Positions 1 through 12,496 of a DNA stretch of 55,083 nucleotides are shown piece by piece (within the stretch, counting starts at the first letter, position 1; each line of letters starts with the position of its first letter). The stretch is from positions 1-55,083 of IMG/VR virus record IMGVR_UViG_2923307698_000002; one strand, written 5' to 3'. Under the pieces are notes generated by a model. The model had not been told where the DNA came from. It was given only the letters and a program-made list of their open reading frames with translations, and did no database searches. Made by a program: the position numbers and the translations under genes. The DNA is from a virus. Its lineage: Duplodnaviria > Heunggongvirae > Uroviricota > Caudoviricetes.

Positions 1-927
1 TCAGCTTTTCGCCAGAACGGTGACGGCCTTATCGAGTTTTTGCCATCCGCAATAGGTGATTGCCCTGAACGCTGTAGCGTCATTCTGGAAAAGGCTAACC
101 GTCCCTGATTCGGTTTTTATTACCGCCTCATCAGTTGGGGTTATAACTGTGGCTTCAACGTTAATAATCAGCTTTTGAGCGTCTATCAGCATCATGCGAT
201 CCGCCTGTTCGCTCACAATTACCGGTATTCTCAAAAGCTCTATCTGCCAGAACTCAGCATCAGTAAGCTGTAAGGCGTTTTCTACGGGCAAGATTAGCGA
301 CGACGTGGCAAGCGTGTTACCGTTCGCTATGTGCTTTTTGAAAAGCTCTATGAAGTTTTCGGCCTCATCAGCACCATTAAGCACGCCCTCAGGGGATACG
401 CCCGCCACCTCCTGGTCACTGGAAAGAAATTTTTTATCTATTTCTTTCACCGATTCCGATGTGATCAAGTCTCTGATCGCTGAATTGGTACAAGGGGTGC
501 TAAATTTGATTAGCTCGTTATTCAGCATCACAATAGCGCCAAGTTTGCACAGTTTTAGCGCACTTTCGTTTACTTCTCCCTCTTTGACAGGGATTTCTTC
601 GGCTTCTTTAAGCCATTTACTACCCTTGCCTGATATTGACTGCAATTTTGCGCCAAACGGAAGATTCAGCGCGCTGCTGATTAGCTTGCCTGGTACAGAC
701 TGCGAAAAAATATACTCGCCAAGCTCTCTTACTATCGGCTCTGCCACCAGCGACGGCATATTATCCGTAGTCATTCCGGCAACAATGGATTTTTCAAGAA
801 ATTTCGATACTGCCGGATCATTTTTTTTCGTCATTTCAATTGCGTCTGCATGGCTGAATTTACACGATGTAAGCACGCTGGCGGCGCGAACTGCCGACAC
901 GCCTTTCATGTTTTTAGAAATCATCAT
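1..927 (-). CDS. phage major capsid-like protein (HK97 fold family), satellite-encoded
   Basis: Complete 308-aa ORF; AGGAGG 6 nt upstream of ATG at 927; C-terminal region resembles HK97-family capsid C-terminus by eye; lies directly downstream of terS with no terL or portal between. Confidence 0.5.
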   Translation of the reverse strand: MMISKNMKGVSAVRAASVLTSCKFSHADAIEMTKKNDPAVSKFLEKSIVAGMTTDNMPSLVAEPIVRELGEYIFSQSVPGKLISSALNLPFGAKLQSISGKGSKWLKEAEEIPVKEGEVNESALKLCKLGAIVMLNNELIKFSTPCTNSAIRDLITSESVKEIDKKFLSSDQEVAGVSPEGVLNGADEAENFIELFKKHIANGNTLATSSLILPVENALQLTDAEFWQIELLRIPVIVSEQADRMMLIDAQKLIINVEATVITPTDEAVIKTESGTVSLFQNDATAFRAITYCGWQKLDKAVTVLAKS

Positions 928-1086
928 CTTCTTCCTCCTGGTAACATGGGGTTAGGGTTTCGTGAAAATATGGCATCAGAACAGCGGCAGCCTGTAACCG
1001 TATTTCTGTTGGCTGCTGCTTGTCGTTCATGATTTCCGTGAGTACATCAATAGGGTCTGTGATGTATTCGCTCATAGTTCGCTACC

Positions 1087-1575
1087 TCAGTGTTTTAAGC
1101 CAGTTGGTGGCTTAGGGATGGGGAACCGATTTGAGGAGACATTAGCGGCATTGAGTTTTTTAACCTCTTTTTTCCCAATGCTGCCGATCTTGCGGTGGGT
1201 GAACTGGGCCAGCTTAAACGCGGCATCTAAAGCCAGTTTTTGATCTGTGTCCATGTTGTCAATCAGTATCCTGCCCATTGCTTTGATGGGGTCGGGTAGG
1301 CCGTTATCCATCATCTCAATGGTGTTAATTGATGCCCGTTCCGGTGTAACTTTTTCGGTAACTTTCTTTGTAACTTTTTTCGGTTTTGTAACCTGAAAAG
1401 TTACATCAGAAGTTACAGCCTTAAGATACTTTTTCACCTCCGGATCATTGGATAGCTGCCAGCCTTTAACCCTTGCAGTCTTTTCGCTGTATCCCGCATG
1501 TATCGCGGCTTCCGTTGGATTTGTGCCCTTTGATAACGCATCAGCAAACCGCTTTTTTTTGGTCGTTAATGCCAT
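1087..1575 (-). CDS. terminase small subunit (P27-like family)
   Basis: Start placed at internal ATG 1575 (MALTTKKKRFADALSKG...) with GAGG RBS; the ORF track extends to 1713 but the upstream part lacks an RBS; N-terminal HTH-like motif typical of P27-type TerS. Confidence 0.75.
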   Translation of the reverse strand: MALTTKKKRFADALSKGTNPTEAAIHAGYSEKTARVKGWQLSNDPEVKKYLKAVTSDVTFQVTKPKKVTKKVTEKVTPERASINTIEMMDNGLPDPIKAMGRILIDNMDTDQKLALDAAFKLAQFTHRKIGSIGKKEVKKLNAANVSSNRFPIPKPPTGLKH

Positions 1576-1702
1576 GCAAAAACCTCGTTTTGAGGGGGTG
1601 TAACTTTTCGTGTAACTTTTTTGAAAAGCAAAATTTTCTATGAATGAGACGGGGGGCGGTGTCCAGGGCGATCGACTTTCCGGCCGGAACACTCCCCCCC
1701 TG

Positions 1703-1864
1703 TCATTGCTCACCGAGTAACGAGATCAGGCCTTCAACTTCATCACTCAGCTTGTTTATTCGTGTCTCAAGCTCTGCGATCTTTTCCATCAATGGCGCTA
1801 TGGTGTCTCTTGTTTCCTCGCCAATGGCTTTAATGATGCTTGCCTCGCGTTCTGTGATAGCCAT
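1703..1864 (-). CDS. small coiled-coil hypothetical protein (53 aa)
   Basis: ORF below the 60-aa track cutoff, found by hand translation (MAITEREASIIKAIGEE...); ATG lies 3 nt after the upstream gene stop (TAAACAATG), suggesting coupling. Confidence 0.3.
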   Translation of the reverse strand: MAITEREASIIKAIGEETRDTIAPLMEKIAELETRINKLSDEVEGLISLLGEQ

Positions 1865-1867
1865 TGT

Positions 1868-2062
1868 TTACGCCTCACTTGTTGCAATGCCCAGGCGTTC
1901 GCGTAACAGTACGCGCGCAAGATGCCCTATTGTTGGTGTTGCCGCCCTGCCGTAGATACCTGATTCATTCATCCGGCGCACAATATCGAACTGCAACTTT
2001 TTAAGCTCGTTAAGGATTTCATGATCAATCATCACGGTAGCGCTTTGCTTTATCTCTTCCAC
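1868..2062 (-). CDS. hypothetical protein (64 aa)
   Basis: GTG start at 2062 preceded by AGGAGA at 7 nt; sits between replication and packaging modules. Confidence 0.4.
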   Translation of the reverse strand: MEEIKQSATVMIDHEILNELKKLQFDIVRRMNESGIYGRAATPTIGHLARVLLRERLGIATSEA

Positions 2063-2149
2063 TTTGTTTTCTCCTGATACTTATCATTGCATAACCAGTA
2101 TTTTCGATAGATTATCATTAATTAACCATCTTTGAAGATATATGAGATC

Positions 2150-2175
2150 GAAAAAAAGCCGGATTGCTCCGGCTA
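2150..2175 (-). terminator. rho-independent terminator after rep operon
   Basis: Hairpin GCCGG-attgct-CCGGC followed by T-run on the minus strand, downstream of the 81-aa gene. Confidence 0.45.
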
Positions 2176-2192
2176 TGTGCTCACTTCTTCGG

Positions 2193-2438
2193 TTATTCTC
2201 CAGCGCTTTTAACGTTGATGGTTGTTACCTGTTCCGCTTCGGCAATCTCCCGTTCTGTCAGCGTGGCAAAGTTTGCCGCCGCGGTGGTCATGAATGCGCT
2301 TATCAGTTCGGGATGCTCCTTCGCGTATCCTTCCCCCGCGTGGCGGTCTATCGTTCTGATTGCCACCTTTAAGGAAAGCTCTGTCATGTCTAACGCTTTA
2401 TATTTTGGCGCTGTCTTATCTCTGGTTTTTCTGTTCAT
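2193..2438 (-). CDS. hypothetical protein (81 aa), last gene of rep operon
   Basis: ORF immediately downstream of the iteron array; start uncertain (ATG 2438 or internal ATG 2387). Confidence 0.4.
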   Translation of the reverse strand: MNRKTRDKTAPKYKALDMTELSLKVAIRTIDRHAGEGYAKEHPELISAFMTTAAANFATLTEREIAEAEQVTTINVKSAGE

Positions 2439-2640
2439 TCCCCACTACTCCCCACTTTTGCTCCCCACTTTTTGAAATTACCCACCGTCTCCCCACCTCT
2501 TTTTTTTGTGATTCTAACGTTATGTTTTTCAATATGTTTTTTACTCCCCACTTTTTTGGGTATATACAGGTGGGAAAGTGGGTAATTATGTTTCAATTTT
2601 GTTAAATTCCCCACTCCCCCCACTTTTACTCCCCACTTTT
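2439..2640. repeat. iteron array, putative satellite replication origin
   Basis: At least 7 copies of TCCCCACT(TTT) in direct orientation plus an inverted copy (aggtgggaaagtggg) and an AT-rich tract, immediately 3' of the rep stop codon. Confidence 0.6.
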
Positions 2641-4040
2641 TACAGCGGGCGCACGTCATCACCGTCAATAACGATTACGCCATCATTTTCCAGCTTGTAC
2701 AGCCAGCGCCGGAAGTGCTTCATCTCATACCCCAGCTTTTTCATATCGTCGCGGAGAAGGGCGATAGTGCACGCCTCCCCGTGTGCTGTTCGTGTTCTGA
2801 TGCACTGCCATAGCGCGGCGTGATTCTCCGTCTTGTTCCCTGCCTCCTCGATGCGCTCCAGTTCAACGGGAGGGCGCGGCTTATCCACCACCACCAGCGA
2901 CGTGATTAACTCCCCGTCAGCGTCGGTAAAAAGCTCCACCACGCGTAAGTCATATGCTGCTTCTTTGAGTTCCTCCGCGTCCTTCATTTTGGTACATGAG
3001 ATAACCAGCGCTTCGCTGCCTGCGTCCTCCCTGCGTATCCGGTATTCGGCGTCCAGTGATGCACGAAATGCACTGGAACCACGCGCCCCCTTTGTTTCAT
3101 CCTTGCCGGAATGGTGAACCACCAGCACCGTTGCCCCTGTGCGCCGTTTCAGTTCGTCACACCCACGGATAAACGCCCCCATATCACGGGAATCATTTTC
3201 ATCATTGCCGCCAAAGCAGCGCGCCAGCGTATCCAGAATAATCATTCGAACCGGTTTACCCGTTTCCCGTTCCACCTGACGGGCAGCGATAACCATTTCC
3301 TCAACATCAAGCGGGGCAGCCGGAAAGATGGGACGGTTTACCAGATACAGATTTTTCACCTGCTCACCGTGCACAACCTCCCAGGCTTTTACACGACGCG
3401 GAACGCCGATACCGCCTTCACCAACCACATAGAGAACAGCGCCATGCGCCACCCTGCGGCCTCCCCACTGGCGGCCCGTGGAAACGTGACACGCCCACGA
3501 ACCCGCAAGGAACGATTTATATGAACCGCTCGCCCCGTATATGCTGCACAGCGATACCGCCGGAATAATCCCCTTAACCACGTAATCAAGTTGTGTGTCG
3601 TATCCGGCAGATCCCACGCTCATTGGTAGCGTGGTTTTTCGCTGGTGGTGTTTTTCTTCCCCTGGCTTTTTCCCCCGCTCCCGTTCCAGATATTCGCGCC
3701 AGTTCTCCCGCTTCTGGCTGTGCATCCCTTCGGGGTAATAATTCGCATCAGTTACACCCGCCGCCGCCAGCTTGTGCGCAATGGCATTAATATTTGATGG
3801 CCTGATGTGGCCTGCCTTGTACAGCCGGACACAATAGCGCCCCTCGTCGATGATTCTCAGGTCTGCCAGTTCATCCAGTTGATCATCAGCCAGCACAACG
3901 GGAGGCACATTATCGCCAGCCAGTCGCCCGTCCTGTTCCTGCCACTGTTTCGCATGTGCCCAGGCATCACTACCCGCAAAAATAATGACTTCGGTCATCT
4001 TGTCGTAAGGCTGTTTTTTTAAGTTCGGTGCGCTTTTCAT
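2640..4040 (-). CDS. replication initiator/helicase, RecA-like P-loop ATPase
   Basis: 466 aa; Walker A YGASGSYKS and Walker B-like MIILD; ATGA overlap with upstream gene; iterons directly downstream. Confidence 0.75.
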   Translation of the reverse strand: MKSAPNLKKQPYDKMTEVIIFAGSDAWAHAKQWQEQDGRLAGDNVPPVVLADDQLDELADLRIIDEGRYCVRLYKAGHIRPSNINAIAHKLAAAGVTDANYYPEGMHSQKRENWREYLERERGKKPGEEKHHQRKTTLPMSVGSAGYDTQLDYVVKGIIPAVSLCSIYGASGSYKSFLAGSWACHVSTGRQWGGRRVAHGAVLYVVGEGGIGVPRRVKAWEVVHGEQVKNLYLVNRPIFPAAPLDVEEMVIAARQVERETGKPVRMIILDTLARCFGGNDENDSRDMGAFIRGCDELKRRTGATVLVVHHSGKDETKGARGSSAFRASLDAEYRIRREDAGSEALVISCTKMKDAEELKEAAYDLRVVELFTDADGELITSLVVVDKPRPPVELERIEEAGNKTENHAALWQCIRTRTAHGEACTIALLRDDMKKLGYEMKHFRRWLYKLENDGVIVIDGDDVRPL

Positions 4041-4336
4041 TTCTTGCCCCTGAATCCGTTAATCATGGTTTTCAGCTTCTGGATGTTTGCCCGTGCCCTG
4101 GCGTTGCTGGTGGGCACGTTATGCGGCGCGGTCTGTACCAGAGAAAAATCACGCCGGAACTGATAAACAGGCATCACGCAATCATATTCGTAACCTTCAC
4201 GGCGGTAAGTTACGCACCGTCCCGCCACGCCCTTAATCATTACCGTGCCGCCGTACTGGTCGCGGTAAATATCACCGCGCGTAAATTTAGGGTGAGTGTT
4301 GCCACTGGCAGTTAAGCCAGAATATTTAAGTTTCAT
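4037..4336 (-). CDS. hypothetical protein (99 aa)
   Basis: Stop overlaps rep start (ATGA); part of minus-strand operon. Confidence 0.4.
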   Translation of the reverse strand: MKLKYSGLTASGNTHPKFTRGDIYRDQYGGTVMIKGVAGRCVTYRREGYEYDCVMPVYQFRRDFSLVQTAPHNVPTSNARARANIQKLKTMINGFRGKK

Positions 4337-4341
4337 TATTT

Positions 4342-4575
4342 TTATTCTCCGGTGTGCTGTTCGTTATATCTGTCGTGCAATAGATCTATTTCTTGCAGTT
4401 CCATTATTACAGGCTCAAGAAGCGTTATTAATGCTGTGGCAATTCTTGATTTTTGTTTGTCGCGTTCATTGTCGCCAAGTGTTTCAAGCCATATGCGCAA
4501 TATTTCGTACATACCTTCAGCGTAAGCAAGGGCACTAAATGCGCGGTCTATTGTTTCGTGGTAAATATCACGCAT
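4342..4575 (-). CDS. hypothetical protein (77 aa)
   Basis: ORF in tight operon arrangement. Confidence 0.4.
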   Translation of the reverse strand: MRDIYHETIDRAFSALAYAEGMYEILRIWLETLGDNERDKQKSRIATALITLLEPVIMELQEIDLLHDRYNEQHTGE

Positions 4576-4576
4576 A

Positions 4577-4798
4577 TTAATCCCCGTCCGTTGTTTTTCT
4601 TAAAACAGCTTCTGTCACGAAATCAGCATAGTTAGCGGCAATATCAAGAATATTTAGCCCTGTATCTCTGTGCTCATCAGTGCAAAGAAAGAAAAAAGCC
4701 ACCCGCATAATTTCAGATATTGACGAAAGCGCATCAGCCGCATCATCAGGAACGCCGGAAAATTCTTGTTTCAGGGAATTAAAACGATCATCACGCAT
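4577..4798 (-). CDS. hypothetical protein (73 aa)
   Basis: ATG at 4798 is 2 nt downstream of a G8 homopolymer on the coding strand. Confidence 0.35.
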   Translation of the reverse strand: MRDDRFNSLKQEFSGVPDDAADALSSISEIMRVAFFFLCTDEHRDTGLNILDIAANYADFVTEAVLRKTTDGD

Positions 4799-5013
4799 AA
4801 CCCCCCCCCATTTTCACAATCAGCAACAAGAATATTTTTAGCGTCATTCAGCGACCGCGTTGCGATGTATCGGATACATTCCAGGGCGAACTGTGTCCGG
4901 TCTTTCTGTTCTTCTCCCTGCGCAAGCTCTGCAGTGCATTCAATATCGATAAGCGCGTGCATCAGCGTAGTGAGCGCGGCGGCTGCTGCGTCCGGTGTGG
5001 TTTTATTGCACAT
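4771..5013 (-). CDS. hypothetical protein (80 aa)
   Basis: Start placed at ATG 5013 with AGGAGG at 6-7 nt; 3' end overlaps the next gene across the G8 tract. Confidence 0.35.
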   Translation of the reverse strand: MCNKTTPDAAAAALTTLMHALIDIECTAELAQGEEQKDRTQFALECIRYIATRSLNDAKNILVADCENGGGLCVMIVLIP

Positions 5014-5203
5014 GGCACACCTCCTGACGAATACGGGCGGCGAATACAGCAACACAACCGGACGGGCAACGGCTACGCGCTTCGCGTTCCGTCCAGGCGG
5101 TTACGTGGATGATTTGAGATTCTCCGGCACTCAGTGCCAGAAAACGCCACACAAAGGCCGTTTGTGTGTGTACAAGGTGTGGTATATGATTTACGGCAAC
5201 CAT
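5003..5203 (-). CDS. hypothetical protein (66 aa), first gene of leftward operon
   Basis: ATG 5203 with AGGAG at 5 nt. Confidence 0.3.
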   Translation of the reverse strand: MVAVNHIPHLVHTQTAFVWRFLALSAGESQIIHVTAWTEREARSRCPSGCVAVFAARIRQEVCHVQ

Positions 5204-5387
5204 AACGGCTCCTAGTTTACGTTGTTGGTTAGACGCCCCGTATGTGTTCCCGCACTGCGGGGTGTTGTTATTTGGTGCATCGCACCATCTGTTTTTAACC
5301 TATCAGCAAGTGAATCGCACTTCAAGCCTTTTTCTCTGAATTTTTTTTGTGTATACTGAATCGCACCAACTTAGAGAGGATTCTGTA
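5204..5387. promoter_or_regulatory. divergent promoter/operator region of the satellite
   Basis: Three copies of TG(A/C)ATCGCAC at 5279-5285, 5314-5320 and 5360-5366; palindrome CCGCAcTGCGG near 5251; TATACT -10-like element; between divergent operons. Confidence 0.45.
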
Positions 5388-5567
5388 ATGGCAACAGGTT
5401 CAACAAATAATAAGTCGCAACAGTTAAATGCCAGATTCCCGCATGATGTTGTTGCAGACTTAGAAAAAAATTTAGATGAAGGTGAAAGCAAAGCGCAATT
5501 TATAGTTACTGCCGTTAAAGGCGAAATCAAACGCCGCCAGCGCCGCAAGGCCAAAGAGCAGGAGTAA
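5388..5567 (+). CDS. ribbon-helix-helix (CopG-like) regulator
   Basis: ATG 5388 after AGAGAGGA; N-terminal beta-strand/helix pattern (QQLNARFPHDVVADLEK...AQFIVTAVKGEI) typical of RHH proteins; basic C-tail. Confidence 0.5.
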   Translation: MATGSTNNKSQQLNARFPHDVVADLEKNLDEGESKAQFIVTAVKGEIKRRQRRKAKEQE

Positions 5568-5609
5568 CCATCACCAGCGCCGTGGTGTGAGGTACTACGG
5601 CGCATTGCT

Positions 5610-5798
5610 ATGCAGGACAACACAATGACCGATAAAGAATTGACCAAAACATTATCACCGGCACGGAAAAGACGGCGCAGAAAGATAGAGCATGAATCAG
5701 AAAGATTCGCACCATGTGCTTTTGCCCTTGAGCAATTCCTTAAAGAGTACAGGGAAAAGCGCTCATTGCAGGTATGGCAACGAACTGAACCAGACTGA
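5610..5798 (+). CDS. hypothetical basic protein (62 aa)
   Basis: ORF downstream of the RHH gene; start may be the internal ATG at 5625. Confidence 0.3.
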   Translation: MQDNTMTDKELTKTLSPARKRRRRKIEHESERFAPCAFALEQFLKEYREKRSLQVWQRTEPD

Positions 5799-5885
5799 TT
5801 GCATTGCCCACCAGCCTGATAGCGGCTATCATCCCCGTGCTTATGTTTGGGATCACATACACATAAGGCGCAGCGGGTTAATTGT

Positions 5886-5912
5886 TCAGAAAGGCGGCTC
5901 CATATCGGGGCC
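5886..5912 (+). terminator. rho-independent terminator
   Basis: GC hairpin (gcggctcc...ggggccgc) followed by T6; lies between convergent genes. Confidence 0.4.
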
Positions 5913-5946
5913 GCTTTTTTCGTGTTTGTCATATCTGTGATACCCG

Positions 5947-6153
5947 TTAAGCAGCCGTTCCGCGTGCTTCCTCTTCGCGTTCTTTCTGCCAGGACAACAC
6001 ATCATCCTCATACCATCCGCGACGGCGTAAACCAACGCGAAAACCCTGCGGAAATTCTCCGGCGTTGATCATGCTTTGCAGCGTGCTGTCTGCCTTGATG
6101 TGGATAATTTTTTTTACTTCCTGGCGAAAGATAATTTTTCTGATTGCTTCCAT
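5947..6153 (-). CDS. alpA: AlpA-family transcriptional regulator/excision activator
   Basis: 68 aa; pattern IIRQ-EV...L...AGEFP...G.RR.GW.EDDV..W matches AlpA/Vis-type MerR-like HTH as recalled. Confidence 0.7.
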   Translation of the reverse strand: MEAIRKIIFRQEVKKIIHIKADSTLQSMINAGEFPQGFRVGLRRRGWYEDDVLSWQKEREEEARGTAA

Positions 6154-6282
6154 CGTGATTTACCTTGTGAATCCGGTGTATTCCGGTGACAAATACGGTA
6201 AATCATCGGATATGGGTAAAAACAGTTCCCACCGTTTTTAAACGGTATACACCGTTTTTTATATTGATGATTTGAAATGGAA

Positions 6283-6310
6283 TTATAAAAAAAGCGGCAT
6301 TTCTGCCGCT
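6283..6310 (-). terminator. rho-independent terminator
   Basis: 7-bp stem AGCGGCA/TGCCGCT with T-run on the minus strand, downstream of the 83-aa gene. Confidence 0.45.
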
Positions 6311-6320
6311 TCCAGGATTG

Positions 6321-6572
6321 TTACCGCCATTTTTTGGGCCTGCCTCCGATCTTCATAGATGCCGGACGTACGACCTTATCAATACTTACCGCCAGATTTC
6401 TGGAAGCGCCACGGGATACCAGAAAATCTACTACCTGTTTTTTTGATGGGGCCGTCGTTCTGTCCTCCGGATCGTAGGTTGACCAAAATTCATGCTGAAC
6501 CATCAGGGCCAGTTGCAGCCCGTCGCAATTGCATCTGATATTTTTTTGCATCTTAACGGTTTCATGTTTCAC
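6321..6572 (-). CDS. hypothetical protein (83 aa)
   Basis: ORF between alpA and int; basic C-terminus. Confidence 0.4.
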   Translation of the reverse strand: MKHETVKMQKNIRCNCDGLQLALMVQHEFWSTYDPEDRTTAPSKKQVVDFLVSRGASRNLAVSIDKVVRPASMKIGGRPKKWR

Positions 6573-6649
6573 GGCCTTGTCGTTAAATTTGATGCAATTA
6601 TACGACGGTTTTACATGGTTTTCGTAGTTTTTACTGGTTTTCTGTACAG

Positions 6650-7891
6650 CTACACGGCTCGGATACCCCTTTTACCACTGGCGAGGGTTACGCCCGTCGC
6701 CGCAGCCTCGACAAATTCGCCCCACCAGCGCATCAGCACGATGCGTTTTTCTATGTAGTTGCTCCGGTTGTATGCCCGTCTAACTTCGTTGGTGTCGACG
6801 TGGGCAAGTGCCGCCTCTATTACGTCCGGCTCGAATCCTTCCTCGTTCGCTGCTGTGCTGAATATGGCGCGTAATCCATGAGACACCAGCACGCCAGCGA
6901 ATCCCATACGCCGCAATGCTGCGTTAGCTGTCTGGCTGTTCATCGGCTGCTGTGGGTCTTTCAGACTTGGGAAAACGTAATTGCGGTGGTGGCTGATTGG
7001 TTTCATGGCCTCCAGCACCGCCATAGCCTGACCGGAAAGCGGGATAACGTGATCCCTGCGCATCTTCATGCGTCCGGCAGGTATCGTCCATTGCTTCGCG
7101 TCCAGGTTGATTTCATCCCACCGCGTTGATGACGCTTCGGCGGGACGGGTTACGGTCAGTAACTGCCATTCAATCAGTAATCTGGTCTGCCGTTCTGTTG
7201 CCGATACTGATAAAGCCTGCATAAGCTCGGGCAGCTGTTCGGGGCGGATTGTTGGCATATGTTTTTTTACAGGTGAGGGAAACGCCTTACGCACATTCAT
7301 AGCCGGATTGGCATCAATCAGCCCACTGTTGGCGGCGTAATCCATTACCTCATTAACGCGCTGTAAAACCCGCTTGAGTGTTTCCAGGTTGCCGCGCTCC
7401 TTGATGGGGGTAAGCACTTCAACGAACCTTCGGGCGGTGAGGGTATCTATTGGCGTGTTGCCGATGAACGGGAATACATATTTATCCAGCGAACGCCAGA
7501 TGTCTTTAATCGTGTTGGGGGCCAGATTCTGGCTGATTTTCACCTGGTACCATGCCGCCGCCACATTTTCGAACGTGTTCCCTTGTCTTCGGGCCTCTGT
7601 CTCTCTTTTTTGCCTCTCGTGGTCCTGTGGGTCAGTTCCGGCACTGATTAACGTCCTGTACTCGCTACGGCGTTTTCTGGCATCAGCCAGGGAAACATCT
7701 TCAAGCGATCCAAAACTCAGCAATATTCTTTTTTTGTCCGATGGTCGGTAGTAGGAAAATCTCCAGAGTTTTGATCCAGACGGTTTGACCAGGAGAAAAA
7801 GCCCTCCGCCGTCCTGCAGGGTGTACTCCTTTTGCGCTGGTCTGGCTGCTTTGATCTGCACTGTGGTTAATGGGTGTGTTTTTCTCGCCAT
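6650..7891 (-). CDS. int: tyrosine integrase, P4-like
   Basis: ATG at 7891 (MARKTHPLT...); N-terminal arm-binding-like domain and C-terminal catalytic domain with conserved R...H.LR...Y pattern; adjacent to tRNA fragment. Confidence 0.9.
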   Translation of the reverse strand: MARKTHPLTTVQIKAARPAQKEYTLQDGGGLFLLVKPSGSKLWRFSYYRPSDKKRILLSFGSLEDVSLADARKRRSEYRTLISAGTDPQDHERQKRETEARRQGNTFENVAAAWYQVKISQNLAPNTIKDIWRSLDKYVFPFIGNTPIDTLTARRFVEVLTPIKERGNLETLKRVLQRVNEVMDYAANSGLIDANPAMNVRKAFPSPVKKHMPTIRPEQLPELMQALSVSATERQTRLLIEWQLLTVTRPAEASSTRWDEINLDAKQWTIPAGRMKMRRDHVIPLSGQAMAVLEAMKPISHHRNYVFPSLKDPQQPMNSQTANAALRRMGFAGVLVSHGLRAIFSTAANEEGFEPDVIEAALAHVDTNEVRRAYNRSNYIEKRIVLMRWWGEFVEAAATGVTLASGKRGIRAV

Positions 7892-7925
7892 ATGTCTATG
7901 ATTCCACACGAAAAAACAGGGTTTT

Positions 7926-7975
7926 AGTTATACGGCTTTAGTTATACGCCAGCCCGTATAACTAAACGTATAACT
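7926..7975. promoter_or_regulatory. putative integrase arm-type binding sites
   Basis: Four copies of a 9-bp motif: AGTTATACG at 7926-7934 and 7940-7948, inverted CGTATAACT at 7955-7963 and 7967-7975, between int start and the att core. Confidence 0.4.
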
Positions 7976-8109
7976 AAAAAATCCGGCTGATAGCTTATAA
8001 ATCCGGTGATGTTCGGTGACTAAAAAACATAAAAAAACCCGCCAATCAAGTGATTAGCGGGTTATCCCTGTCTTATCCGGTGCTTTCCGGTGATATCCGG
8101 TGGGCGATT

Positions 8110-8155
8110 TGGTCGGCACGAGAGGATTTGAACCTCCGACCCCCGACACCCCATG
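8110..8155 (-). other. attachment-site core: 3' 46 nt of tRNA-Pro(GGG)-like gene (partial tRNA, no 5' half)
   Basis: Minus strand reads CATGGGGTGTCGGGGGTCGGAGGTTCAAATCCTCTCGTGCCGACCA: anticodon loop with GGG, variable loop, T-arm GGAGG/TTCAAAT/CCTCT, acceptor and CCA; upstream sequence cannot form acceptor or D arms. Confidence 0.65.
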
Positions 8156-8370
8156 TCACCGCGCCTGAAACGCTGGAGACCGCGCCATTGCTGGGCTGGC
8201 AGGGTGTTTCACTGTGTGCGCAAACAGTGCATAATTCGCAAAATTCACGCTATATACATCAATGAGTTAAGAGAGATTTTTCCCCACTCCTAAATGGTCA
8301 GTTTTTGGAGCATTACTATATTAATAGGTTCCGTCTATAGCACTTTTTGATTTGCTTCTAATATGCTTTT

Positions 8371-8397
8371 CTGTGGATAAGATTTAGTTATCCACAG
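8371..8397. promoter_or_regulatory. inverted pair of DnaA-box-like sequences
   Basis: CTGTGGATAA-gatttag-TTATCCACAG; TTATCCACA matches the DnaA box consensus; about 200 bp upstream of the 255-aa gene. Confidence 0.3.
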
Positions 8398-8593
8398 ACT
8401 TATCTCCTAAGTTTCCGAGCGGCTACATGTTTTTTGTTGATTGTTTTATGTTTGGCGTAAAGTCAACAATTACTTCGCTTTTTGACCATTTTAGCCCATT
8501 GGAAATTACGATCATCTTCATGTAACCTTCTAAAACTTACTAAGATTGCAGAAGTTAAAGCAACATAGCTCGTAGTTTCTTAAAGGTGATTTA

Positions 8594-9361
8594 ATGCCAC
8601 AGCCGGCGCTAAAAGCGAACGAAATCAGCAGTGAATTAATCGATATTCTTGCGGCTCGGAATACGATATCCGAAATGCAATATTTTCGTTATATCAGAGA
8701 TATAGAAAAGTTGCGCGACAGCGCATCTGAGGACTATCTCAAAGCGTTGGCTAATGGTGCTTTTGGGCGTAAAGATACTGCAGTTGCATTCTTTGAAGAA
8801 GCATTGAAGCATAACAACCTGATCATTGCTCAAAATTATGTAGTTTATCTCAACGATTACGGCAGCTTCCGTGAAGTTGAACAAGTGGTAAATCGATTAG
8901 TTGAACGTTATAACTCCCCTACGATGCTGTCCCATGCATGGGAAGCTAACTTGTTCTTGGGGCGTATTGACAAAGCGCTCTACTATGCTGAGAGATTGAT
9001 AAGTATGGTAGATGAAAAGGAGGCTGAATTGGTTAAGCACCTCGCAGCCACAGCACTGGCCCAATCCACGACCTTCAAAAGTGCAACTGGAATTACTGAT
9101 GAAGAACTACAGGATATTGCAAACCGCATAGTGGATATCATGGCTGACCATAAAGTTAGTCCTGTTGCTATGTCTTTCTGCTCTATCCCTGAAGAGCGTA
9201 CGTCATCATATGTCATGGCAGTTAATACTGAAGATTCTGATGTTCTCTCTGATATGAACTTGGATATAGCATTTTCTCTTGCAGAAAATGAAAGTTTGAT
9301 TGGAAAACCCTTCAGCGTATGGTTTGAAGGGCGTTTGGAGGAACCTGCGCGTGCCAGTTAA
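8594..9361 (+). CDS. hypothetical protein (255 aa), first gene of two-gene cargo operon
   Basis: ATG 8594 after AAGGTGA; AT-rich codon usage unlike the flanking phage DNA; no family recognised. Confidence 0.55.
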   Translation: MPQPALKANEISSELIDILAARNTISEMQYFRYIRDIEKLRDSASEDYLKALANGAFGRKDTAVAFFEEALKHNNLIIAQNYVVYLNDYGSFREVEQVVNRLVERYNSPTMLSHAWEANLFLGRIDKALYYAERLISMVDEKEAELVKHLAATALAQSTTFKSATGITDEELQDIANRIVDIMADHKVSPVAMSFCSIPEERTSSYVMAVNTEDSDVLSDMNLDIAFSLAENESLIGKPFSVWFEGRLEEPARAS

Positions 9362-9734
9362 TAGTTCCGATTTTATCGCTTTCGCAAAAGATTGTGAAAA
9401 GCGTAACGACGAAATTGGTTACAGAAACGCTGTCGCACGTGCGTATTATGGTGCTTATCACCACGTACTTCCGTGTTTGACCATGGGGCCGAAAGAAAGT
9501 CACCAAGGCCTCATTGACTATCTTGTTAACGATGCTTGGAAGGGTAACGAACCTTTTGAAAAAAGAGACTTAATTGGTTTGGGGTATGCTCTTCAATCGC
9601 TTAAGGATCAGAGAATAGTTTGTGATTACAGACTTAACGACACTATTACGCCAACCCAATCAAGCACCGCGATTAAGACTGCAGAGAAATTAATCCAGCG
9701 TTGCGCTAATATGACCAAGTCTAAAGCGTCCTAA
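9351..9734 (+). CDS. hypothetical protein (127 aa), possible HEPN-like fold
   Basis: Probable GTG start at 9351 after GGAGG, overlapping the upstream stop; contains R-x6-H (RAYYGAYH); assignment speculative. Confidence 0.45.
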   Translation: MPVNSSDFIAFAKDCEKRNDEIGYRNAVARAYYGAYHHVLPCLTMGPKESHQGLIDYLVNDAWKGNEPFEKRDLIGLGYALQSLKDQRIVCDYRLNDTITPTQSSTAIKTAEKLIQRCANMTKSKAS

Positions 9735-9740
9735 TCCCCA

Positions 9741-9770
9741 AAATTGGCCTCATTTGAGGCCAATTTTATT
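9741..9770 (+). terminator. rho-independent terminator
   Basis: Hairpin TTGGCCTC-attt-GAGGCCAA followed by TTTTATT. Confidence 0.5.
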
Positions 9771-9774
9771 ATGC

Positions 9775-10140
9775 ATTGTATTTAATTTCACCGTGCGGAA
9801 GCATTACCCAATCATATGGTTCCGCGTATAAATTTTCGTTGATTTCGCGTCGCTGTGGGCTATGAGCCCTTGTGGTCTACTCCCTGTTTATCAAACAAAA
9901 TGCAGCTAGTGCGCGTATTTTGTGGAATGTGGGGGCGCAGCTCCATCGTCAAATTATTACACAAGCCTAACGAATCACGGGGCAATGAAAAGTATGGCTA
10001 AGATAGGCAGGTGCGGATACCTCTTTACTGCGTTTGTTATTACGCTCGGTATACGGTGAACGATATACGGGCAGGCAACGTTATCGCGACTGTTATCAAT
10101 AATACGTTTCAGTTTGTCCTCGAACTACATCACAACCGGC
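9775..10140 (-). pseudogene. integrase 3'-end remnant (frameshifted fragment)
   Basis: Nucleotide and translated similarity to the 3' third of the intact int at 11312-11700 (e.g. ...QGLIAHSDAKSTKIYT vs ...QGRMAHSDAKSTKIYT); 1-nt indel and stops; no 5' part. Confidence 0.6.
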
Positions 10141-10217
10141 TTGAAAACTAATTACTGGATTTTGTGCCTCCATAATCATATGATTTAAAATGTTATTTTA
10201 TAAAAAAGGAGTTGTAT

Positions 10218-11174
10218 ATGACCAATTTGTATAAGTTTATGGGAGCGGATATAATTGATAAATTGATGATGGATGAAACACATATAGGAATAAAATTCTC
10301 TCATTTACATGAATATAATGATCCCTATGAGTTTTTCCTTACTATTGATTTTAATCGCGGTTCTGATGAGTTAGCATTTTACAATGAAATGATTGGCATG
10401 GTTACAAAACAACCAGCAACTTGTTTTACGAAAAGCCCTGTGATACCACCTATGTGGGCACATTATGCAGGTAATTCTTCTGGTTTTGTAATAGAGATTA
10501 ATGAGGAGAAGTTTAAAAAGTATTTGGATGAAATCGGCTTCCAGGATCATAGTTCAATAGCAGATGTTGAATATAAAGATTCTCCAGATACAGGTATTGA
10601 AGACATTCTGGCGAGAGCATTTCATATCTGTAAACCTCGTTATATCTACTGGCTACAATCCTGTATAATGACAGCCGCATATTTGACAAAACAAACTTGC
10701 TGGAGTTATGAGCAGGAACGTCGCGTAATAATTAATGAGAAAGCACTTACTAAACTGAATGACAATCTTATGCTCCTTCCGGTACCGATTAATTGTATAA
10801 CTGGAGTTATAGTTGGGCACAAATCAAATGATTTATTAAAGCAGAAAATTCAATCTTTAGCTAAAAAGGCTAAATGTAGATATTTCGAAATGGTAATAGG
10901 AAAAACAACAACTACACCATTTCTTTTATCTCAAAATCTCAAATCACACCAATTTATTAATGGCAATATAATACCTGCATCAAGGCAATGTAAAAAATGT
11001 TATGAGCCTTTAAACATGGAAAATAAAGTTTGTGGCTGGTGTGGAATTACTAATCATGATGTGAAAATGGCAGAGTACCGTAATTCATTTCGAATGATAG
11101 CCAACTATGGTGGGCTGGATAAATATATATCATCCATGAATAAGATTACTGAAGAGTATAATAAGGGTAAATAA
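10218..11174 (+). CDS. DUF2971-like protein with C-terminal zinc ribbon
   Basis: ATG 10218 after AAAGGAG; motifs LYKF...FS...NDPYEF, MWAHYA, WSYEQERR recalled as DUF2971 signature; C-x2-C-x13-C-x2-C at the C-terminus; AT-rich. Confidence 0.55.
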   Translation: MTNLYKFMGADIIDKLMMDETHIGIKFSHLHEYNDPYEFFLTIDFNRGSDELAFYNEMIGMVTKQPATCFTKSPVIPPMWAHYAGNSSGFVIEINEEKFKKYLDEIGFQDHSSIADVEYKDSPDTGIEDILARAFHICKPRYIYWLQSCIMTAAYLTKQTCWSYEQERRVIINEKALTKLNDNLMLLPVPINCITGVIVGHKSNDLLKQKIQSLAKKAKCRYFEMVIGKTTTTPFLLSQNLKSHQFINGNIIPASRQCKKCYEPLNMENKVCGWCGITNHDVKMAEYRNSFRMIANYGGLDKYISSMNKITEEYNKGK

Positions 11175-11311: not shown

Positions 11312-12496
11312 CTAACCGGTTTTAATTTCTCCATGAGGGACAACAATCCAATCTATATGATTTTTAGTATAAATTTTAGTAGATTTCGCATCGCTATGTG
11401 CCATTCGTCCCTGCGGATCAATCCCTTGTTTATCAAATAGGTGAGCTGCCAAAGCTCTTATTTCATGGAATGTAGGTCTTTGTTCCATTGCTAGATGATT
11501 GCATAGTCCGAGTTTGTCTCGCACGGAAGAGAATGACCGACTCAAATAATCTGGTGCAACTTGAGTTGGGTGCGAAACCTCTTTACTGCGTTTAACATGC
11601 CGTTCTGGGATTCTATGAACGACAAAGGGACTGGCCACATTGTCACGGCTATTGTCAATTATCCGTTTCAATTCTTCACCAATTGGTATTGCAACATGTG
11701 ATGCCTCCTTTTTTTGTACTTTTTGCCTATGGATGTATAGTGTACCATATATGCCATTTTGTGGTTGTTCGAACCAAACACATCCACATAAACCGTCTTT
11801 AGGTTCGCGAATTGAGTAACGGATTCGCGATACTTCGAGTCGTGCATGTGTAGTCTGCAATGCTAGGTCCATTGCTGTTCTTAACCATGGTGCAGCGGCC
11901 TGCCTGATAGCTATAAAATGCTCGAGTGACAGGCGCCGTCTTTTCTTCTCATCAGTCCTACGCATTTTTTTTCTGATGGCCGGGTTATCCTGCATTAGTG
12001 ATTCATCGACCGCATAAGAGAACAACTTTTTAAGAAAGCTGACCTTTCTGTTCTGCACATTTGCGGATGCGCTGGCATGATATTTGTTGATGTAGGCATT
12101 AACGTGTTCAAGTTCGATATCGCATGCCGGAACATTTACGAAAAACGCTTTTACGCGTAGAGCGTCATTTTTCCAGTCATCTAAGGTACTCTGGGAAGGT
12201 CGTTCGTCTTCGATAATTCTGGCCATTATGTGATCGACATGTTCAGCAAATGGTTTTGCTTCTCCGGTGACCCCGCCAGATTCTCTAATAAGATTATCCA
12301 CTGATGGGTATAATTCTGATCGCATCCTCAGGTTGTACTCTCTGGCGATTGCAACGGCTATTGCCCGATCCTTACCTATATTTTTCTTTTTTCCGGTAAT
12401 AAGTGTGAATTTATAAACACCTCGATCTTTATCAAAAACCAGATAATCAGGAAGATGTCTGTATTCTTTTTTACGTGGCCTTGCCGCCATGGTCAT
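11312..12496 (-). CDS. int: tyrosine integrase, lambda-type
   Basis: 394 aa; N-terminal arm-binding region and C-terminal catalytic domain; ATGA overlap with xis. Confidence 0.9.
   Translation of the reverse strand: MTMAARPRKKEYRHLPDYLVFDKDRGVYKFTLITGKKKNIGKDRAIAVAIAREYNLRMRSELYPSVDNLIRESGGVTGEAKPFAEHVDHIMARIIEDERPSQSTLDDWKNDALRVKAFFVNVPACDIELEHVNAYINKYHASASANVQNRKVSFLKKLFSYAVDESLMQDNPAIRKKMRRTDEKKRRRLSLEHFIAIRQAAAPWLRTAMDLALQTTHARLEVSRIRYSIREPKDGLCGCVWFEQPQNGIYGTLYIHRQKVQKKEASHVAIPIGEELKRIIDNSRDNVASPFVVHRIPERHVKRSKEVSHPTQVAPDYLSRSFSSVRDKLGLCNHLAMEQRPTFHEIRALAAHLFDKQGIDPQGRMAHSDAKSTKIYTKNHIDWIVVPHGEIKTG

Follow-up and report, generated by a model that had tools for sequence, protein, structure and literature searches.

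Two overlapping genes, here called A and B, occupy positions 8,594 to 9,734 of a 55,083-nucleotide (nt) stretch of DNA recorded as a tailed virus of the class Caudoviricetes (IMG/VR record IMGVR_UViG_2923307698_000002), the whole of which is referred to as the window. The window DNA is Escherichia coli chromosome. Protein B (127 amino acids, aa) belongs by fold, profile and signature residues to the AF0298/UPF0332 (HEPN-T) group of HEPN domains and is probably an RNA-cleaving effector or toxin. Protein A (255 aa) is a TPR-like protein, proposed to be the inhibitor or sensor partner of B. The two genes are found together far beyond chance, and the cassette behaves as accessory cargo of the "moron" type, moving between variable slots of mobile elements. 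The interpretation towards which the analysis leans, by a modest degree, is that of a toxin-antitoxin-like or abortive-infection cassette: A would both sense and inhibit, while B would act as an RNase.

The association was examined across 100 sources of B homologues (10 species-representative genomes, at least 80 IMG/VR viral contigs and others), and the linkage counts rest on the matches listed. A match to the A profile lies immediately 5' of B and on the same strand in 99 of these 100 sources, and the last one was recovered with a broader profile. An earlier sequence-only reading of the window had named a lack of genomic linkage between homologues as grounds for refuting its proposal, and the linkage is present. 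The B loci listed represent 41 lineages at 90% identity. In 33 of 40 lineages B begins before A ends, with an overlap of 1-20 nt, and in the others it follows after a gap of 16 nt or less; a GGAG-like motif precedes its start in most of the 40. Past the B stop, 23 of 39 lineages show a terminator-like hairpin within 90 nt, compared with 3.5% among random windows taken from the same loci, and the guanine-cytosine (GC) content of the cassette falls under that of its flanks in 38 of 39. A is more divergent than B (17 versus 6 clusters at 50% identity; mean pairwise identity 28% versus 43%), and the pairwise identities of the two proteins are correlated (r = 0.84). The linkage also holds when approached from the A side: a B-type HEPN gene lies directly downstream in all five distant A-like proteins of normal length with a readable next gene, the contig of a sixth (P0211) stopping just past the A gene. 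Across loci only A and B are conserved, and the neighbouring genes vary.

In the Klebsiella phage ST405-OXA48phi1.3 (MK416008.1, locus L100, 4001-4396), the GenBank annotation splits B into two short overlapping hypothetical open reading frames (ORFs). A broken B was considered for this phage and rejected, as translation gives an intact, mis-annotated B of 131 aa.

In the window, the cassette and its signals are arranged as follows.

8156..8593, plus strand: non-coding leader of gene A, 438 nt, with no ORF of note
8594..9361, plus strand: gene A, ATG start, 255 aa, given alike by the ORF listing and by the Prokaryotic Genome Annotation Pipeline (PGAP)
9337..9341 and 9351..9353, plus strand: the A/B junction within the 3' end of A, with the Shine-Dalgarno sequence GGAGG and the GTG of B, read off the sequence
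9351..9734, plus strand: gene B, GTG start, 127 aa, with the same start in PGAP
9740..9767, plus strand: intrinsic-terminator-like hairpin with a perfect stem of 12 base pairs and a 4-nt loop, followed by UAUUAU, 6 nt past the B stop

The open frame holding B spans 9300..9734. B is 127 aa long and overlaps A by 11 nt because its GTG (9351-9353) precedes the TAA stop of A (9359-9361). The GGAGG/GTG site within the 3' end of A forms a translational-coupling junction. Both coding sequences coincide with PGAP calls in complete E. coli genomes (WP_001136067.1 and WP_001145023.1), each annotated as "hypothetical protein", and 73 E. coli genomes share this annotation of the pair. The hairpin has a folding energy of -17.5 kcal/mol (z = -4.5) and none of 200 shuffles folds equally well; a simple terminator scan missed it because its T-run is interrupted. 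The overlapping genes with a GTG after GGAGG, the upstream region of their own and the strong terminator, all read earlier from the letters alone, are thus borne out. The same reading had placed the pair in markedly AT-rich DNA: the pair is AT-rich, but the dip is modest, with 42.8% GC against 45% in the flanking 10 kb, and 1-kb values across the window range from 34% to 62%.

The leader holds a perfect 11-nt inverted repeat (TCTGTGGATAA-N7-TTATCCACAGA) at 8370-8398, about 200 nt 5' of gene A, which amounts to a pair of facing DnaA-box-like 9-mers. It is retained at equal spacing to the A start in three further lineages (L011, L029 and L032) with proteins just 60-70% identical, and lone DnaA-box-like 9-mers occur in the leaders of L002, L040 and L058. 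In a promoter scan, promoter-like hexamers were no commoner in the leader of A than in shuffles.

The assignment of B rests on several lines of evidence. The protein shows the up-down helical bundle of the HEPN fold, and a profile built from 27 B homologues retrieves the HEPN protein 9xbd from the PDB (6.7e-5) together with AF0298 (2hsb). The broader B-family profile gives stronger matches (9xbd, 8.1e-11; 9xbc, 5e-10; 2hsb, 1e-6). Several B homologues carry the JGI label "UPF0332 family", one (P0048) has a precomputed match to PF05168, and B itself matches the phage family phrog_5176 (5.8e-30). Conservation was evaluated over homologues from Gamma- and Betaproteobacterial phages with 25-40% overall identity, reaching as far as a Burkholderia phage (about 25-30%). 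Eight residues, all polar or aromatic, are invariant (E21, R25, Y32, Y33, H37, H51, R88 and Y93), and N26, R30, Y57 and D92 are nearly so, R30 being conserved in at least 90%. In the HMMER alignment, R88-x3-D92-Y93 of B corresponds to R-E-E-S-D-Y of AF0298, H51 to the His of T-H-R-G, and H37 to F-H. B thereby displays the HEPN-T signature: R88 at the end of helix 3, D92 in the place of the His of Rx4-6H, and H51 as an alternative His. The sequence-only reading had taken an R-x6-H motif as a possible sign of a HEPN-like fold; the motif exists (R30..H37) and the fold was rightly guessed, but the motif lies in helix 2, away from the canonical HEPN position, and is itself noncanonical.

In the AF0298-like HEPN-T group, an Asp stands where Rx4-6H has its His, and the active site may be rebuilt by another conserved His, located in an insert that separates helices 2 and 3, so that these proteins are regarded as potentially active; AbiV has this alternative His in common with the group (PMC3710099). 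AbiV has AF0298 as one of its closest structural homologues and is a proven anti-phage RNase toxin that degrades rRNA (bioRxiv 10.1101/2024.05.05.592566). The structural neighbours of B include Csm6 HEPN domains, the sacsin HEPN domain and the C-terminal domains of nucleotidyltransferases.

Protein A was modelled with high confidence (predicted local distance difference test, pLDDT, 92). It is composed of a TPR-like helical N-terminal half (4-136), in which the stacked helix-turn-helix repeats of the TPR fold cover residues ~27-136, two long helices (141-185) and a small beta-beta-alpha-beta C-terminal domain (190-246). It matches phrog_17809 (3.7e-42), a family of phage proteins with no assigned function. 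Among curated families, none in Pfam, PADLOC or NCBIfam matches A above threshold: the Pfam TPR models remain under their gathering cut-offs (TPR_15, 21.8/26.2; TPR_14, 21.8/23.5; TPR-S, 19.9/27.6 bits), the sub-threshold matches to Imm15 and TPR-S were rejected as not significant, and the NCBIfam search of A and B returned noise only. The C-terminal 116 residues have no Pfam match. Scanning 38 diverse C-terminal domains of the A family singly gave scattered single chance matches, and a profile of the domain against PDB sequences gave repeat artefacts only. Two identities were tried and rejected. The C-terminal domain shares with DUF1902 a similar order of secondary-structure elements, but a degenerate HicB/DUF1902 fold is unsupported, as hhalign against the DUF1902 of fused relatives, described below, shows no similarity. 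Likewise, A does not qualify as a hidden nucleotidyltransferase, since the G-S/D-x-D motif is absent and a conserved "SDMNLD" stretch retains D and N only; Pfam scans of A and of its C-terminal domains gave no nucleotidyltransferase match.

An exhaustive search with the A profile yielded 158 clusters at 50% identity, nearly all of 245-290 aa and matching end to end, and the A family is therefore a stand-alone one with a fixed architecture. Across 40 lineages the conserved positions are nearly all hydrophobic, the polar ones being only K7, N81, D214 and N222. With almost no conserved polar residues, A has the look of a protein that binds or serves as a scaffold, and not that of an enzyme. Neither A nor B was found to belong to a housekeeping or structural family, and their homologues are genomically linked; these are among the outcomes on which the sequence-only reading had made its proposal depend.

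The strongest indirect evidence for a toxin-antitoxin logic is offered by two relatives of A. P0148 (324 aa) and P0199 (317 aa) consist of an A-like core followed by a C-terminal DUF1902 (29.7 bits, over the Pfam cut-off), a part which also resembles TTHA1013/1wv8. In both cases the next gene encodes a 67-aa HicA toxin, with a 1-nt overlap, inside phage structural modules (the A-like plus DUF1902 and hicA genes lie at 199-1376 of locus L109 and at 5001-6157 of locus L110). DUF1902 corresponds to the class 7 HicB antitoxins, the genes of which are often juxtaposed to hicA, and HicA has been modelled onto the DUF1902 sheet (Gerdes 2023 preprint). That preprint on HicA contexts does not appear to describe a HicB with an A-like N-terminal extension, and the sole mention of TPR in its main text concerns a neighbouring gene in a figure legend. 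Through the pairing of A-like plus DUF1902 proteins with HicA, the A module is also found in the antitoxin position next to another RNase toxin, one unrelated to B.

The carriers are mostly temperate phages, of Enterobacterales, Aeromonas, Vibrio, Gilliamella, Acinetobacter and Burkholderia, and all the deposited phage genomes with examined surroundings show temperate-type or prophage features. The slots occupied are diverse. In lambdoid prophages of Yersinia, Serratia and others the pair lies between the antiterminator Q (or DUF968) and the lysis genes, whereas in E. coli and Enterobacter it adjoins the integrase at the prophage end; in some loci it is next to umuDC-like genes. In Mu-like Aeromonas prophages it sits between GemA and lysozyme, in the Klebsiella phage Chronis in the early region, and in the Burkholderia phage vB_E192a between the tape-measure and baseplate genes. 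In a P2-like phage it abuts the portal gene, and in P2 the portal-gene side is the old/tin side, shown to be a defence hotspot (PMC9122126). Plasmid carriers are few (3 of 72,556 records), namely a 10-kb MOBQ Acinetobacter plasmid with 11 genes and Vibrio plasmids. In two other viral contigs (L069 and L076), a tRNA-Pro-like 3' fragment (…GGTTCAAATCCTCTCGTGCCGA-like) was observed just downstream of gene B, and the cassette is thus found at a tRNA-Pro attachment junction in other lineages too, on the opposite side.

The surroundings of the pair in the window comprise the following features.

6650..7909, minus strand: P4-type integrase
8110..8155, minus strand: truncated tRNA-Pro gene, of which the 3' part is left from just past the anticodon region, marking the junction of the integrated element that bears the pair
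~9769..10118, minus strand: C-terminal part of a lambda-type integrase, a frameshifted remnant directly after the terminator of the pair
10212..11174, plus strand: DUF2971 protein, 320 aa, with a C-terminal zinc-ribbon-like motif (34% GC; PADLOC candidate PDC-S31, 4e-22)
11312..12496, minus strand: intact lambda-type integrase, the prophage integrase

The 46-nt tRNA-Pro stretch, which we take to match E. coli proL, occurs once in the window and never in shuffles, and no complete tRNA was detected in the window by ARAGORN. In E. coli CCUG 73778 the pair comes after narP and a yejO remnant. The alignment of this genome with the window shows identity starting precisely at the tRNA-Pro fragment, to the left of which there is a satellite-like island in the window versus the yejO remnant in CCUG 73778. 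The pair therefore belongs to the right-hand, prophage-side element and is the outermost cargo of that element, 440 bp inside the tRNA-Pro junction. The claim that the pair lies between two integrase-bearing elements thus needs to be amended: integrases are present on both sides, but the pair is part of the element on its right. The 1.5-kb pair region is present in 73 of 5,426 complete E. coli genomes (1.3%), every copy being chromosomal; the 20 best-matching genomes are 100% identical to it, and 72 of the 73 carriers reach 99% or more.

Rightward of the pair, the order is integrase remnant, DUF2971 gene, intact lambda-type integrase and a CPS-53-like prophage. The remnant is annotated by PGAP at the equivalent site of CCUG 73778 as "recombinase; frameshifted; missing N-terminus", and a 41-aa ORF within it (9860..9985, minus strand) is similar to the C-terminus of the integrase at 11312..12496. 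The DUF2971 gene is a second cargo gene in the slot of the pair, between the remnant and the intact integrase. Given the position of the remnant, between the pair and this next cargo gene, the pair and the DUF2971 gene may derive from two elements that arrived in succession, or else two integrase genes may have recombined.

Two variable slots of the window prophage are occupied by PADLOC candidates, PDC-S42 in the Q-to-methylase slot and PDC-S31 in the integrase-side slot. The first of these slots, between Q and an N6/N4-methyltransferase gene (24234-25773, minus strand), is the one taken by the A-B pair in Yersinia prophages; in the window it contains two low-GC minus-strand genes, encoding a 143-aa membrane-like ORF and a 287-aa protein matching PDC-S42 (1e-32). 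At the far prophage end, beyond the tail fibre and assembly gene, a region of 36% GC (53281-55083, minus strand) encodes a 400-aa DUF4236 protein reaching the window end, as well as a 195-aa ORF that matches PDC-S31 in part and bears DUF2971-like motifs. The island on the left (1-8100) encodes a capsid-family protein, a small terminase subunit, an AAA_25 replication-type ATPase and the P4-type integrase, and from this content it looks like a capsid-forming phage satellite. At that position it was found in no complete RefSeq E. coli genome.

As a toxin-antitoxin-like or abortive-infection cassette, the pair could operate as follows. B would be the RNase effector, and R88, D92, Y93 and H51 would form its site, which probably spans a HEPN dimer. 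A would bind B and hold it inactive in the lysogen, the fast-evolving TPR half providing the sensing surface. B would be freed when a protein of an incoming phage binds A, or when A is lost, and would then cleave cellular RNA, so that growth stops and the infection is aborted. The population carrying the prophage would be protected in this way, and stabilisation of the element would be a by-product. The resemblance to toxin-antitoxin or abortive-infection pairs had already been noticed in the sequence-only reading, and it is upheld here by evidence of a comparative nature, i.e. co-inheritance, coupling, mobile-cargo slots and HicB-fused relatives with HicA. A broader proposal, which we advance tentatively and with some doubt, is that the A family is a portable sensor-inhibitor, combined by phages with two or more unrelated RNase toxins, namely AF0298-type HEPN and, via an added HicB domain, HicA. 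Such modules would make up a family of prophage-encoded abortive-infection systems missing from the defence catalogue searched, with the fast-evolving TPR surface of A as the receptor of a phage protein, and would involve the first AF0298-type HEPN toxin without a nucleotidyltransferase.

Several observations weigh against a sensing and inhibiting A paired with an RNase B. Classical type II antitoxins carry a DNA-binding domain and autoregulate their operon, and no helix-turn-helix, ribbon-helix-helix or AbrB DNA-binding domain was found by Pfam in A or B. The site just 5' of the lysis genes, where the pair lies in several phages, also houses genes for the phages' own late functions. Neither protein matches any PADLOC-DB 2.0 family (E up to 1), and the window B falls under the gathering cut-off of the Pfam HEPN model PF05168 (13.2 versus 22 bits, E = 0.099). 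A damaged B beside an intact A was encountered at one locus only (L073), without a strong asymmetry of decay. In the HicA variants it is probably the added DUF1902 domain, and not the A core, that binds the toxin, so that neutralisation may not fall to the A core. Moreover, the canonical catalytic His of Rx4-6H is absent from B, no functional study of any AF0298-type HEPN was found in the literature, and some HEPN domains are non-catalytic, such members being included among those of PF05168 type (PMC3710099).

The last of these points leads to the view of B as a catalytically inert HEPN binding domain, the pair being a non-toxic accessory complex (a regulator or a chaperone-like adaptor) and the linkage a reflection of assembly. 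The missing His fits this view, as do the non-catalytic PF05168-type proteins among the structural neighbours of B, i.e. the sacsin HEPN and the nucleotidyltransferase C-terminal domains (PMC3710099). However, no variation is seen at E21, R25, H37, H51, R88 and Y93, and almost none at D92, among homologues of 25-40% identity, and such conservation argues for a chemical function and not for binding alone. Since AbiV, with the alternative His in common, is an active RNase, and since the mobile-cargo distribution is unlike that of a core regulator, an inert B is regarded as very improbable.

If B is active, it may still serve something other than the exclusion of phages. A pure addiction module would stabilise the carrier prophage or plasmid by post-segregational killing, with B as toxin and A as labile antitoxin, and it would account equally for the architecture and the linkage. 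The cassette is among just 11 genes of the 10-kb mobilizable Acinetobacter plasmid, a setting typical of stabilisation modules, and the E. coli pair stands beside a decayed integrase, as if helping to retain a remnant. On the other hand, the pair is rare on plasmids and common in phage contigs (at least 80 IMG/VR loci), it occupies slots known or predicted for anti-phage cargo, and the fast-evolving TPR half is expected of a sensor of foreign proteins and not of a simple labile antitoxin, for which reasons pure addiction seems unlikely. A still less probable role is that of an offensive or counter-defence factor serving the infection of the carrier phage itself, and not of a suicide module of the lysogen; B might, for example, attack nucleotide second messengers or the RNAs of host or competitor, with A targeting or timing it. 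Late transcription would be expected where several phages hold the pair between Q and the lysis genes or in late and structural modules; Csm6 HEPN domains are among the structural neighbours, and a TPR could bind a host defence protein. Against such a role, the terminator that usually belongs to the cassette and its atypical GC are hallmarks of morons, the E. coli pair lies outside the lytic operons and beyond the integrase, the pair is also present on non-phage plasmids, and all the examined phage-genome surroundings are of temperate type or prophages. The HicA-paired relatives, too, fit a toxin-antitoxin logic.

If the toxin-antitoxin-like or abortive-infection interpretation is true, an uncatalogued two-gene immunity or toxin-antitoxin system would be added to those described, and two phage families labelled as unknown, phrog_17809 and phrog_5176, would receive a function. 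The large AF0298/UPF0332 HEPN group is usually assumed to need a nucleotidyltransferase partner, and it would prove to be controllable by a repeat protein as well. An A module that can be exchanged between toxins, as the HicA-paired relatives suggest, would be a tractable case for the shuffling of sensors and effectors in phage-phage competition. A 1.6-kb clone suffices for direct tests in E. coli.

Comparison with known systems sets the pair apart from each of its nearest counterparts. B is like the AF0298/UPF0332 HEPN-T proteins (PF05168; PDB 2hsb, 9xbd and 1ufb) in fold, profile and signature residues. These are normally partnered with, or fused to, a minimal nucleotidyltransferase (MNT), whereas A is not an MNT and no MNT gene was found near the pair, either among the window ORFs or among the conserved neighbours across loci. 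Furthermore, the solved representatives of the group come from archaea and thermophiles, while the carriers of B are Proteobacterial phages. In the type VII system HepT-MntA (Shewanella SO_3166/SO_3165; 5yep, 7bxo), HepT is a DUF86 HEPN with the canonical Rx4H that B lacks, and the antitoxin is an enzyme which AMPylates HepT. A shows no enzyme-like conservation, and the neutralisation of B, if it occurs, must therefore be by binding; as a nucleotidyltransferase partner is absent, the A-B pair is not HEPN-MNT (type VII).

The AbiV protein of Lactococcus is, like B, a HEPN with alternative-His logic, but it is 201 aa long and inhibited by the RNA abiV2, while B has 127 aa and a conserved protein partner of 255 aa. 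The direct structural match between the two is weak (Foldseek probability 0.47), and AbiV is within the scope of PADLOC, in which B has no match. Between 7900 and 10250 of the window no Rfam family reaches its gathering score; two sub-threshold matches, one of them on the terminator hairpin, are at chance level. ToxI-like repeats are likewise absent at the pair, the sole tandem repeats lying upstream of the tRNA-Pro junction and outside the cassette. An AbiV-type or type III toxin-antitoxin identity was therefore rejected on account of the different size, the protein nature of the partner and the absence of an RNA family or repeats nearby.

As regards HicBA systems with a DUF1902-type HicB, the relatives P0148 and P0199 share the hicB-hicA order and coupling, while the window A has no DUF1902 domain and its partner is a HEPN instead of HicA. 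Accessions and sequence motifs of A and B are both absent from the supplements of DefensePredictor, and the HEPN pair listed there as DS-28 is unrelated. The literature searched holds no mention of the A and B accessions, of 9XBD, of UPF0332 or of a TPR-HEPN pair. A-B is accordingly classed as a candidate HEPN toxin module in which the partner is of a new type, missing from PADLOC and from the searchable literature. A precedent for its general plan is found in LA2681, a HEPN fused to or in operon with TPR, and in AbiU2, in operon with Sel1 repeats (PMC3710099). As in A-B, a HEPN is there combined with a helical-repeat protein in the context of conflict systems, although these proteins keep the canonical Rx4-6H, belong to unrelated HEPN subfamilies and gave no sequence link to A or B. 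The A-B pair is a well-defined and widespread candidate, yet one that conforms to a familiar architectural theme.

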